64,000 bases of DNA from a virus. Position 1 is the stretch's first letter, and every line of letters begins with the position of its first letter. The position numbers were made by a program, and so were the translations under genes. The stretch is from IMG/VR virus record IMGVR_UViG_3300031688_001339; one strand, written 5' to 3'. The notes beneath the pieces are model-generated. The model worked only from the letters and a program-made list of their open reading frames with translations, had not been told where the DNA came from and searched no databases. Shown one piece after another: positions 43,305-46,400 of the stretch.

Positions 43305-44663
43305 ATGAGCAATTTTATAGGCAAAACAAATAATTTTATCTGGTTCTCAGGTGTAGTAGAGGATAGACACGACCCACTCTACGCTGGCCGTTTAAGAGTT
43401 AGATGTTTAGGTTATCATACTGATAGTAAGTCCGAATTACCCACAGTTGATCTACCTTGGGCAACCGTAATGTTATCAACGGCCTCACCTGGTATTTCAG
43501 GCATTGGCCATAGTCCTAGTTTTTTATTAGAAGGCAGTTGGGTATGGGGATACTTTCGTGACGAGGGTAACCAAGAGCCAATCATCGTGGGCAGTTTACC
43601 TGGTAAACCTAGTGAACTTGGCAATACGGCCATTGGCTTTAATGACCCTAACAGCCGACTTGATAAAGACGGCGTAGAGACAGGTGTTTCGGTTTATCCT
43701 GTAAATAAGAATGAGGTGGACACCAATAGGTTGGCGGTCAATGATCCTCTCGTAGAAGCGATATCGTTAACGGCTCGTAAAAGGGATCGTATAACGGGAG
43801 TACCAACGGCAAGGTTTGACGGTTTAAATAATATTACCCAGATGTCGGACATGGACGCCATAGCGGCACAAGAGATTGGCCTGATTGACCCAGACTATAG
43901 AGGGTTAAGAAGATACAATGGAATTTTATTAAACAATGACGCCGATGCTATAGAGGCATTGTTATATGGCTCAACGTTTGATGACGAAGAATGGTCAGCG
44001 AGGGCTCTATTGATTCGAAAGTATTCTATCACACAAGCGACAGACATACAAGCATTATTAGCCGAGATAAGAAATACAGTAAGAGGCATTATCGCAAACA
44101 CAACAACGGATGCCGAATTATGGAATCAACCCGAGATTGCATACAAGGCTCTCTATCCTTATAACCATGTATTTGAATCAGAAAGCGGCCACATAAAAGA
44201 ATACGATGACACGCCACAACATGAAAGAATATTTGAAAGACATAACAGTGGTAGTTCTTACGAGTATACCCCTAATGGAGACCGAATTGATATCATCACC
44301 AATAACCATTATACACTGACAAGCAAAGATAACCTATGTAACATACAAGGCAATTCAGATATCACAGTCAATGGCCGTCACAAAGTTTATATTAACAAAG
44401 ACGGACAAAACGACAATCACTATGATATACAAGTAGGGCCAAACGCCAACGTTAATATACAAGTAGACAAAGGCAATCTCAATGTAGTAACAAAGACAGG
44501 CCAGTTTAACTTTGATGTAGGTGCAGACTTTAATGTAAACGTAGGTGGTAATTATAACCTTACAGTACAAGGTTCAGAAACAAAAACAATTGAAGGCAGT
44601 ACAACACACAACACAACAGGCGCTACGATTATACGTGGTAGCACTATTGATTTGAATCCATAG
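43305..44663 (+). CDS. gp5: Baseplate central spike gp5 (OB-fold plus beta-helix, no lysozyme domain)
   Basis: WF.GVVEDR.DP...GRLRVRC.G.H, LPWA, GSWV.G.F.D, YPYNHV.ESESGH..EYDDTP, V.G repeats, IDLNP end. Confidence 0.9.
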   Translation: MSNFIGKTNNFIWFSGVVEDRHDPLYAGRLRVRCLGYHTDSKSELPTVDLPWATVMLSTASPGISGIGHSPSFLLEGSWVWGYFRDEGNQEPIIVGSLPGKPSELGNTAIGFNDPNSRLDKDGVETGVSVYPVNKNEVDTNRLAVNDPLVEAISLTARKRDRITGVPTARFDGLNNITQMSDMDAIAAQEIGLIDPDYRGLRRYNGILLNNDADAIEALLYGSTFDDEEWSARALLIRKYSITQATDIQALLAEIRNTVRGIIANTTTDAELWNQPEIAYKALYPYNHVFESESGHIKEYDDTPQHERIFERHNSGSSYEYTPNGDRIDIITNNHYTLTSKDNLCNIQGNSDITVNGRHKVYINKDGQNDNHYDIQVGPNANVNIQVDKGNLNVVTKTGQFNFDVGADFNVNVGGNYNLTVQGSETKTIEGSTTHNTTGATIIRGSTIDLNP

Positions 44664-44863: not shown

Positions 44864-44953
44864 ATGGATTTACTTCTAGCAATACTATACTCAGCAATGC
44901 CTCTACTTGTGATTGTATTGATGTTTATTAAATGGAATAAAGAAAAACCTTAA
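44864..44953 (+). CDS. Small TM peptide (29 aa), probably leaderless
   Basis: MDLLLAILYSAMPLLVIVLMFIKWNKEKP. Confidence 0.5.
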   Translation: MDLLLAILYSAMPLLVIVLMFIKWNKEKP

Positions 44954-45516
44954 ATAAAAGGTCTACCATAAAAGAACACAGGTAGACTATGCCTTTCACC
45001 GGTCTCTATGGGTGTTACTCTATGACCTAACCAAGCAGGGAATACAACAACTGTTCCTCTTTGCATATCTATTGTAAAGTTCTCTATATCATGTTTCTTT
45101 ATTTGAAACTTACCACCTGTAAATTCAGAGGGTTCATTAAGTAATATAGTCATTGATATTTTTCTTGTAAGGTTATGTAATGGATCAGCAAGGTCTTGTA
45201 TTACACTATTATGGCCTACTATGCCGTCTCTATGCCACATATACTGATTACCTGGTTTATAATTATGCAGTTGTATTTGTTCGCCATCTATACTGTAGTG
45301 CCAACCTTTCTCGTTAGCCTTATTCATATAGTGATATAATCTTTCTAGTAACCACGGATCATTCTTTTCGCAGTTTATAATACGTTTTATTTCCTCGTCA
45401 TTAAAAGCGTTATGTTCCGAATAGTATAATGGATCACTTTCTTTCTGGTACTTAAAATGATTGTTACTATCAGGACAGCTTTTAGGTTTATCGTTGGTCA
45501 TCCATTTCATAAACAC
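44950..45516 (-). CDS. 2OG-Fe(II) oxygenase (prolyl-hydroxylase-like)
   Basis: Q...Y..G..Y.WHRD, RKISMTILL, GG, FP....HRVTP...G.R.S; minus-strand TATAAATA at 45517-45524. Confidence 0.9.
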   Translation of the reverse strand: MFMKWMTNDKPKSCPDSNNHFKYQKESDPLYYSEHNAFNDEEIKRIINCEKNDPWLLERLYHYMNKANEKGWHYSIDGEQIQLHNYKPGNQYMWHRDGIVGHNSVIQDLADPLHNLTRKISMTILLNEPSEFTGGKFQIKKHDIENFTIDMQRGTVVVFPAWLGHRVTPIETGERHSLPVFFYGRPFI

Positions 45517-45640
45517 TATTTATAATGTTATCCTGTCACACCTTGCTGTGCTGTATTCTCTTATACATAACGGTGTTGGTCCGTCAGGAAAAGCTTAGAG
45601 TCCTAATGGAGATAATTTCTCACTTATACACATAAAAGTC

Positions 45641-45790
45641 CTAAATAGTTTAACGAGAGTGAATGTCTTCTCTCGGTAATCAAGAGACATATACACATAC
45701 ATTATTAGATTGGCTTGCTAATCATTGATTTTTTTATACAGTAGAGTTCGCAAGAACGGCTATGGCATAGCAACTCTGTTGCTACATAAT
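45641..45790 (+). ncRNA. Candidate structured RNA (pseudoknot plus tetraloop hairpins), family unknown
   Basis: H-type pseudoknot 45654-45690, G(CUUG)C hairpin 45708-45723, GCAA hairpin 45746-45757, all in a non-coding gap. Confidence 0.5.
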
Positions 45791-45809
45791 AAACAAATAA
45801 AAGGGTAAG

Positions 45810-46139
45810 ATGGCTAATTATAAAAAGTACGCTTTAATGGCGTTAAAGAAGAAGGCACCGAAAGTACCGGCATATACTTGTACGGATATAGATAACGTAA
45901 TCACTACACTAGAAAACATACACTCAGGTACGAAGAAACTAACGAAGATACGGCTTGACGTTTTGGAACGTAAGTTGGAAAGACTTCGGTCTTCTAATGA
46001 GGGTTTGAGAGATAGTGGTATATACTGGTATGGTATAACGAAGAAGATAATTAAGAATTTGAAAGATAATGGTAAGAAAGCGAATTTAAGTAAACGAAAT
46101 AAAAAAAATCGGAAAAATCGGAATTACGACTCTGATTAA
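45810..46139 (+). CDS. Basic hypothetical protein
   Basis: APKVP..TC.DID, ERLRSSNE.LRDSG.YWY. Confidence 0.65.
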   Translation: MANYKKYALMALKKKAPKVPAYTCTDIDNVITTLENIHSGTKKLTKIRLDVLERKLERLRSSNEGLRDSGIYWYGITKKIIKNLKDNGKKANLSKRNKKNRKNRNYDSD

Positions 46140-46157
46140 TACTAGGAGAGAAGAAAA

Positions 46158-46400
46158 ATGGGAGAATACTTTTTAGTTATAGTATTTTGTATAATGGGTG
46201 AGTGTACATCAATAGATCCACAAACACCATATCCTGATTATAACACCTGTCAAGAGGTGAGTGAAGAAACGGCTGTGTTGTTTCAACGACAATACCCAAA
46301 CAGTAAAGGTCAGATATATTGTCTTTCGGAAGATGAGTATAAGGAGTATATAAATACTACTGAACCTAAAGAAGCACCGAAAGTTGGTAGTCCAGTATGA
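46158..46400 (+). CDS. Small Cys-containing secreted/membrane protein
   Basis: AGGAG RBS, hydrophobic N-terminus, four Cys. Confidence 0.6.
   Translation: MGEYFLVIVFCIMGECTSIDPQTPYPDYNTCQEVSEETAVLFQRQYPNSKGQIYCLSEDEYKEYINTTEPKEAPKVGSPV

Follow-up and report, generated by a model that had tools for sequence, protein, structure and literature searches.

We found that an H-type RNA pseudoknot stands at the head of the 5′ leader of a late gene in a phage sequence assigned to the T4-like pelagimyophages, and that the same pseudoknot recurs in the leaders of temperate T7-like pelagiphages. The module occupies positions 45654 to 45690 on the plus strand of the 64,000-nucleotide virus sequence that was analysed (the window), and both of its stems, S1 and S2, covary across the myophage and podophage copies. 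We concluded that it is a real, uncatalogued leader RNA, which constitutes a new family of an already known type, and we infer its function below from its conservation and distribution.

The region is bordered on one side by a gp5-type baseplate hub gene (43305-44663) and on the other by a group of small ORFs and Fe-S/radical-SAM genes. The nearest gp5 proteins from isolates belong to the Pelagibacter phages Mosig (57% identity) and HTVC008M (41%), and therefore, as judged from sequence comparison, the window comes from a T4-like myophage that belongs with the pelagimyophages. A blastn search of 50,697 phage records returned no nucleotide-level relatives of the 1.6-kb region. The leader occupies a gap that is flanked on its upstream side by a 2OG-Fe(II) oxygenase gene on the minus strand (44950-45516). 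This gene behaves as an indel, being present in some relatives and absent from others, and it adjoins the leader segment that is swapped among sister phages (see below). A full-consensus late promoter (TATAAATA) is found on the minus strand at 45508-45524, 6 nt upstream of the conserved oxygenase ATG, implying a leaderless or nearly leaderless late mRNA. On the downstream side is ORF 45810 (45810 to 46139, plus strand), the gene served by the leader, which encodes a basic protein of 109 amino acids and is preceded by a Shine-Dalgarno-like AAGGG (45801 to 45812 including the start codon). Homologues of ORF 45810 were present at 22 loci on viral contigs, with identities of 55-94%. Its product had no match in Pfam, PHROG, Atlas or phage tblastn searches, and an AF2 model of it was helical, with low confidence (pLDDT 64). 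About half of the IMG/VR contigs with a homologue (L007-L023) begin 0.1-1.5 kb upstream of it, suggesting that assemblies break in the hypervariable, cassette-swapping region upstream of these genes.

The T4-type late promoter core CTAAATA is located at 45641 to 45647 on the plus strand. The earlier note on this DNA, made from the sequence alone, had called this motif late-promoter-like, and it was right to do so: the position was kept in 22 of 22 homologous loci, in which relatives carry ATAAATA or TATAAATA at the same place. T4-type late promoters consist of a TATAAATA-like octamer about 6 nt before the start; the window matches seven of the eight consensus bases, and one relative (L090) has the full late-promoter consensus where the window has CTAAATA. 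Transcription is predicted to start about 6-7 nt after CTAAATA, at 45653/45654, and the RNA would then begin directly with the pseudoknot. Many other ORFs of the window have the same heptamer close upstream, and their leaders are short and unstructured; thus, a long folded leader is peculiar to ORF 45810. We concluded that the segment from 45641 to 45809 comprises the promoter and the roughly 156-nt 5′ leader of the late mRNA for ORF 45810.

The leader was covered by assembled contigs from four metatranscriptome runs, and contigs from three of the four runs (representing three studies) linked the pseudoknot or the leader to ORF 45810. One RNA-library contig of 572 nt, covering 45654-46227, had its end exactly at 45654, 7 nt downstream of the promoter and within one base of the start predicted by the T4 late-promoter rule; we regard this as a weak hint that 45654 is a transcript 5′ end. 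Another contig was identical to the window from 45667 to 45858, and a further one (45552-46150) extended upstream. These are assembled contigs, not reads, and DNA carry-over is possible. In the RNA libraries, then, the pseudoknot and ORF 45810 are on one molecule. The contigs were unbroken from the pseudoknot across a downstream U-run and into ORF 45810, which argues against a distinct small RNA that stops at the U-run, and the suggestion that the element is a nuclease-resistant sRNA was abandoned for this reason. The suggestion of an origin primer RNA was likewise dropped, no evidence for it having been found in the analysis and the module being a sense-orientation 5′ leader element in two unrelated phage types. 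Contigs from two of the runs end at 46150, 11 nt past the stop codon of ORF 45810, which could be either a transcript end or a strain breakpoint.

The pseudoknot is made up of S1 (45654-59 paired with 45670-75), loop 1 (45660-62), S2 (45663-68 paired with 45685-90), a single junction U (45669), and an A-rich loop 3 (45676-84), all on the plus strand. Further copies were collected by pattern scans of viral and metagenome contigs and from 42 protein-anchored MarR-like loci, which gave 18 versions of the module, with S1 of 5-6 bp, loop 1 of 2-4 nt, S2 of 5-7 bp, a junction of 1 nt, and loop 3 of 9-11 nt. Among these 18 distinct sequences compensatory changes were observed in five of six S1 pairs and three of seven S2 pairs; the covariation of these eight pairs with two-sided changes was reached by none of 500 shuffles. 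In a model-based alignment 88.6% of cells were paired, as compared with 35-57% when the partners were slid; S2 was absent from the structure of the alignment model, and its flanking pairs were absent from every search pattern. The 5′ strand of S1 occurred as GAGAG, AAGUG, GAGUG, AACUC, and ACAGUG, each with a matching 3′ strand, and U.G pairs in S1 were found on the plus strand. The pseudoknot had been placed correctly by the earlier note, and comparison of homologues, the check that the note had proposed for it, revealed two-sided changes in both stems. With two interleaved covarying helices, and loop lengths compatible with coaxial stacking, the module has the properties of an H-type pseudoknot. 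The window contains one copy of the module pattern, and none of 100 shuffles matched it.

Conservation within the module was uneven. Hardly any change was seen in the core of S2, in the UG of loop 1, or at the junction U, and loop 3 was A-rich without fixed letters; S2 and the loops stayed this constant in podophage lineages that share no more than 32-50% identity in their MarR-like proteins. The search patterns that supplied most of the module sequences had the S2 core and loop 3 built in, and the apparent invariance is therefore partly a matter of ascertainment; the protein-anchored set contained some S2 mismatches and variable loop 3 letters. An alternative helix, formed by the pyrimidine tract with the AGAGA before S2, was rejected, since it is broken by a G-to-A change in L029 and L101 while S2 is intact.

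No match to Rfam 15 was obtained at the gathering score anywhere in the window, and a search of 45400-45950 at E values up to 10 gave three chance-level hits only (two snoRNA families and osmY). The 172-nt leader was no more stable than dinucleotide shuffles of it (z = +0.27; opposite strand, +0.38). Given no excess stability and no Rfam match, the case for the element rests on comparison with other sequences.

The most informative comparison was with a podophage. A permissive blastn search with the 293-nt intergenic region gave a sole match (E = 5e-4), to the podophage HTVC134P, the host of which is Pelagibacter; 32 of 35 bases were identical to 45655-45689 of the window. The HTVC134P copy lies in an unannotated gap directly before the Shine-Dalgarno sequence of a MarR-family regulator gene, which is followed by an integrase gene. 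In the larger collection the module was found in two settings, one being the window's own myophage lineage, where it always comes right after the late promoter, and the other being several lineages of temperate T7-like pelagiphages, where the gene order is upstream ORF, module, Shine-Dalgarno sequence, MarR-like gene, integrase, tRNA-like segment, RNA polymerase. In the podophages 2-25 nt separate the module from the ribosome binding site (RBS) of the MarR-like gene, and over all copies the distance to the Shine-Dalgarno sequence ranges from 2 to 110 nt. Every copy of the module was a sense-strand part of a 5′ leader, and each podophage genome had one strong copy. Similarity between the window and the podophages was limited to the module itself, and the pseudoknot is a self-contained, portable RNA module common to two unrelated phage types. 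A scan of 185,579 species genomes for host copies with an exact-core pattern yielded two chance matches, both lacking S1. The tRNA-like segment of the podophages, which immediately follows the integrase gene and precedes that for RNA polymerase (4871-5065 in L029 and 7272-7476 in L033), is likely to be attP, as judged from translated tRNA-arm-like ORFs.

In both settings the module behaves as a facultative, dispensable cassette. Near-identical podophage leaders were found with and without it, the boundaries being clean (L003 vs L166 and L152 vs L151). Among sister myophages, a segment between two conserved blocks, consisting of the late promoter, the 5′ structure and the spacer, was swapped as a whole. 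Close relatives have a plain hairpin at the module site, or nothing; in those with 73-83% protein identity the position is taken by unrelated simple hairpins, behind which a U-rich tract often follows.

Between the pseudoknot and ORF 45810 the leader contains additional structure. Hairpin H2 (45708 to 45723, plus strand) has a 6-bp stem with two G-C pairs and a CUUG loop, and is followed, 5 nt past the stem, by a U7 run; it is a possible weak attenuator. The earlier note had pointed out this hairpin and the nearby U-run (U7 at 45729-45735), and their positions were right; conservation beyond the closest relatives was not seen. H2 was confined to the closest, pseudoknot-bearing relatives, its stems being identical in L005, L006, and L101 and differing in L002 by a one-sided change of G.U to G-C, and no two-sided change occurred. 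H2 with U7 was not called as an intrinsic terminator by a terminator scan, and RNA contigs cross it. The U7 run forms, together with AUACAGUAGA, a block (45729 to 45745) that was invariant in nine distinct relatives; a pattern drawn from the invariant bases past the U-run matched only the same lineage and, by chance, coding sequence. In the minimum free energy fold U7 (45729-45735) pairs with an A-run (45793-45800) before the Shine-Dalgarno sequence and thereby encloses the next two hairpins, Pa and Pb, as a three-way junction; both runs are kept in relatives, and the pairing is of low complexity.

Pa (45746 to 45757) consists of GUUC, a GNRA-like loop, and GAAC, with two-sided changes in three pairs. 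In relatives the GUUC/GAAC base is kept and is extended by 3-5 further pairs of differing sequence, and the base pair of Pa alternates between G-C and G.U, which fits an RNA on the plus strand. Pb (45768-45784) occurs with four different stem sequences and has two-sided changes in four pairs. For Pa and Pb together, the observed score for the seven pairs with two-sided changes was reached by none of 500 shuffles. Around Pb is an outer helix, Pc (45760-64 with 45785-89; element 45760 to 45789), with an invariant GCA bulge; in the window group Pc is invariant or weaker, and RNAalifold favours instead the pairing of 45741-44 with 45760-63 as an extension of Pa, both pairings involving invariant bases. 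Within this region the invariant CUAUGGCAU (45762-45770) contains an upstream AUG, the first two codons of which are the same as those of many main ORFs. The mini-frame that it opens has two codons in the window and 3-13 in relatives; in L013 it ends with UAAAUG, overlapping the main start, and in L011 it is in frame with the main ORF.

These comparisons bear on the switch that had been suggested for the leader, in which a three-way junction and a TAGCAAC/GTTGCTA hairpin were held to be mutually exclusive. The hairpin is Pb, and it is where it was said to be and covaries. The GTTC/GAAC helix of the junction (45746-49 with 45754-57) also covaries; the other helix of the junction, GCTAT/ATAGC, is found in the window only, its site having uncompensated changes in relatives, and mutual exclusion of junction and hairpin is therefore not a conserved feature. 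Thus, of the riboswitch-like leader of the earlier note the structured leader stood and the junction/hairpin switch did not. The broader proposal, a structured and uncatalogued RNA leader downstream of a late promoter, was borne out, the pseudoknot and two hairpins being evolutionarily maintained. We found no conserved alternative pairing linking the pseudoknot to H2, the U7 run, or the Shine-Dalgarno sequence. In particular, antiterminator pairing of loop 3 with H2 or the U-run was rejected, there being 5-6 bp of low-complexity complementarity only, in a block that is also conserved in relatives lacking the pseudoknot. Masking of the RBS in read-through transcripts, of the type known for T4 lysozyme, was likewise rejected, as there was no convincing complementarity between the sequence before the promoter and the Shine-Dalgarno sequence.

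The closest functional counterpart of the element is the T4 gene 32 leader, and its closest structural counterparts are the small pseudoknot aptamers preQ1-I, SAM-II, and SAM-V. The gene 32 mRNA leader of T4 and T2 has a 5′-terminal H-type pseudoknot that is an autogenous translational operator and stabilises the mRNA. The two leaders are alike in having a sense, cis-acting H-type pseudoknot at the extreme 5′ end, far upstream of the RBS. They differ in that there is no sequence relation, the gene served here does not encode a single-stranded DNA-binding protein (the ORF 45810 product belongs to no recognisable nucleic-acid-binding family), and the module also serves the podophage regulator and integrase genes. 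In addition, the tract between knot and RBS is unstructured and A/U-rich in gene 32, whereas here it holds the two covarying hairpins Pa and Pb, unlike an operator of the gene 32 type. With preQ1-I (RF00522), SAM-II, SAM-V of Pelagibacter, and guanidine-III the module shares a length of about 35-40 nt and the H-type topology. It is also like the small pseudoknot aptamers in its covarying stem 1, its conserved stem 2, its A-rich loop 3 able to line the minor groove of stem 1, and, for the podophage copies, its position just upstream of the Shine-Dalgarno sequence; it is unlike them in matching no Rfam model, in being associated with genes that are not metabolic, and in leaving the Shine-Dalgarno sequence outside stem 2. 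Membership in preQ1-I itself is contradicted by the lack of an RF00522 match, by a Shine-Dalgarno sequence 2-110 nt past stem 2, and by the absence of adjoining queuosine genes; moreover, the junction is a single U here and a loop of 4-6 bases in preQ1-I. The swapping of the segment as a unit among sister phages is reminiscent of the mobile regulatory cassettes (promoter plus stem-loop) of T4-type phages, except that those carry early promoters and plain hairpins, and here there are a late promoter and a pseudoknot common to podophages.

We tentatively propose, giving it somewhat less than an even chance, that the pseudoknot is a cis-acting control element whose sequence is specifically recognised by a trans factor that SAR11 cells have in common; the binding of such a factor, its identity and the direction of control are all putative. 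S1 drifts by compensation while the S2 and loop letters are fixed, which points to sequence-specific recognition of the folded RNA, and a division into covarying and invariant positions is typical of aptamers and of protein-binding sites. Since the two phage types share only their host, a host-derived ligand or RNA-binding protein would be the simplest partner. The factor might be a small ligand, with the module as a riboswitch-like aptamer, or a host RNA-binding protein, and the folded state would set the amount of downstream message that is made or translated. In the podophages this could occur through steric or anti-Shine-Dalgarno effects by the RBS, where translation could be set by release of the pyrimidine tract; the myophage pseudoknot would cap the 5′ end and act with the downstream H2 and U7 run. 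The presence of one fold with two downstream arrangements (H2 with U7, or an abutting Shine-Dalgarno sequence) resembles what riboswitch classes often show. Roughly half of the likelihood that we assign to a factor-responsive cis-regulator belongs to a small-molecule aptamer. We consider it unlikely that the module represents a new class of riboswitch aptamer, restricted to SAR11 phages and sensing a host metabolite or second messenger; the signal would then be relayed in podophages to translation of the lysogeny regulator and integrase, and in the lytic myophage to read-through or stability of the late message. Recognition by a trans factor has several points against it: the pseudoknot of the window is 110 nt from the Shine-Dalgarno sequence, the module is dispensable, which fits a generic structural role as well, and the downstream genes (regulator and integrase; basic protein) point to no metabolite.

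The generic role is that of a passive 5′ stabiliser, a compact terminal fold which senses no factor and shields the message from 5′-end-dependent decay, by RNase E 5′ sensing or by a 5′-3′ exonuclease, and whose conserved letters serve the tertiary fold, for example as minor-groove triples between loop 3 and S1. Precedents for mRNA stabilisation exist in 5′ stem-loops (ompA, for example) and in T4 gene 32, whose leader likewise has a 5′ pseudoknot. Such a role would account for a pseudoknot that begins at the predicted +1, as does the terminal structure of the E. coli ompA leader, and for the unrelated simple hairpins that sister phages have exactly there, after the same promoter, and it would be compatible with the facultative presence of the module in podophages and with a distance to the Shine-Dalgarno sequence varying from 2 to 110 nt. 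What it leaves unexplained is why S2 and the loop letters should be nearly fixed while S1 drifts: 5′ stabilisers need no conserved loop or stem sequence, and the module keeps both across distant phages. In addition, podophages of the HTVC134P type seem to have the module some 25 nt into the leader or right after the upstream ORF, and so away from the 5′ end, with the promoter placed by eye. We hold a purely stabilising role to be rather unlikely, although it is the chief alternative to our proposal. A nascent pseudoknot might also act on RNA polymerase, or recruit a factor to it, in processive antitermination or attenuation of the put or nut kind, allowing read-through of H2 and U7 in the myophage and of signals before the RNA polymerase gene in podophages. 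The promoter-proximal position of the module, upstream of a co-occurring hairpin and U7 run which the RNA contigs read through, is what such a mechanism would call for; H2, however, is weak, 5 nt from the U-run and uncalled by the terminator scan, the podophages have no terminator-like site before the regulator gene, and Rfam revealed no similarity to put or boxB, making this mechanism quite improbable.

Two further explanations dispense with RNA function altogether. The inverted repeats could be operators in the DNA for the MarR-like or another DNA-binding protein, the myophage copy having been captured, and it is true that the podophage module precedes the gene for a winged-helix regulator and that palindrome arms bound by a homodimer also change together. 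MarR operators do not look like this, however: the arms here interleave, measure 5-7 bp, and have spacings of 10 and 16-17 bp. S1 varies between phages that have the same S2, U.G pairs are limited to a single strand, every copy has one and the same orientation with respect to the gene that follows, and no MarR-like gene was found in the 64 kb of the window. An element of this kind is therefore highly improbable. As for the idea that the complementarity is a functionless accident of an AT-rich intergenic spacer, it would be consistent with a whole leader no stabler than shuffles (z = +0.27), and it is already refuted by the near-identical 35-nt module in unrelated phages (E = 5e-4), by the failure of all 100 shuffles to match the module pattern and by covariation in both stems; what probability it retains is negligible.

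Several more specific roles were considered and rejected. A leader peptide could be read through the pseudoknot in a frame of 6-13 codons from an invariant GTG, but no Shine-Dalgarno sequence precedes it, and variation falls on the first and second codon positions and spares the third. A stimulator of frameshifting or read-through would need a slippery site, of which there was none, and the upstream stop codon is at a variable distance, from 8 to about 70 nt. The module is not attP, the tRNA-like segment being on the far side of the integrase gene, and its single copy per genome excludes a T7-like phage-polymerase promoter or other repeated signal. Similarly, there were no tandem repeats and one copy per genome, which is unlike a type III antitoxin RNA (ToxI-like), with its pseudoknot-forming tandem repeats of about 36 nt, or a phage mimic of one, and the exact-core pattern found no true match to a ToxI-like host counterpart in the 185,579 species genomes.

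Few biological entities in the sea are as abundant as SAR11 bacteria and their phages, and SAR11 is known for using RNA switches in place of protein regulators. An uncatalogued, covarying pseudoknot before the regulator and integrase genes of temperate phages, and also in a lytic myophage, is thus a concrete candidate, of about 40 nt, for an element through which SAR11 phages control lysogeny or late expression at the level of RNA. The module also illustrates the exchange of a regulatory RNA cassette between unrelated phage families with a common host. If it were a riboswitch, phage life-cycle decisions would be wired to host physiology via RNA in the ocean's most abundant bacterium; if it were a stabiliser and nothing more, it would be an ordinary element with an unusual distribution. 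Riboswitch scans of pelagimyophages have reported none except glutamine riboswitches in Melnitz- and Mosig-type phages (PMC7029224, PMC9004378), and our literature search found nothing linking pelagiphages with pseudoknots.

The most widely conserved part of the gap lies outside the leader, in a block just upstream of the late promoter (45558-45612), which is kept even in relatives at 55-62% protein identity. RNAalifold gave no consensus structure for this block. It holds a local hairpin that changes from ACGG/CCGT to GCCG/CGGC, and it could act as a signal in the DNA or mark where an upstream transcript ends.
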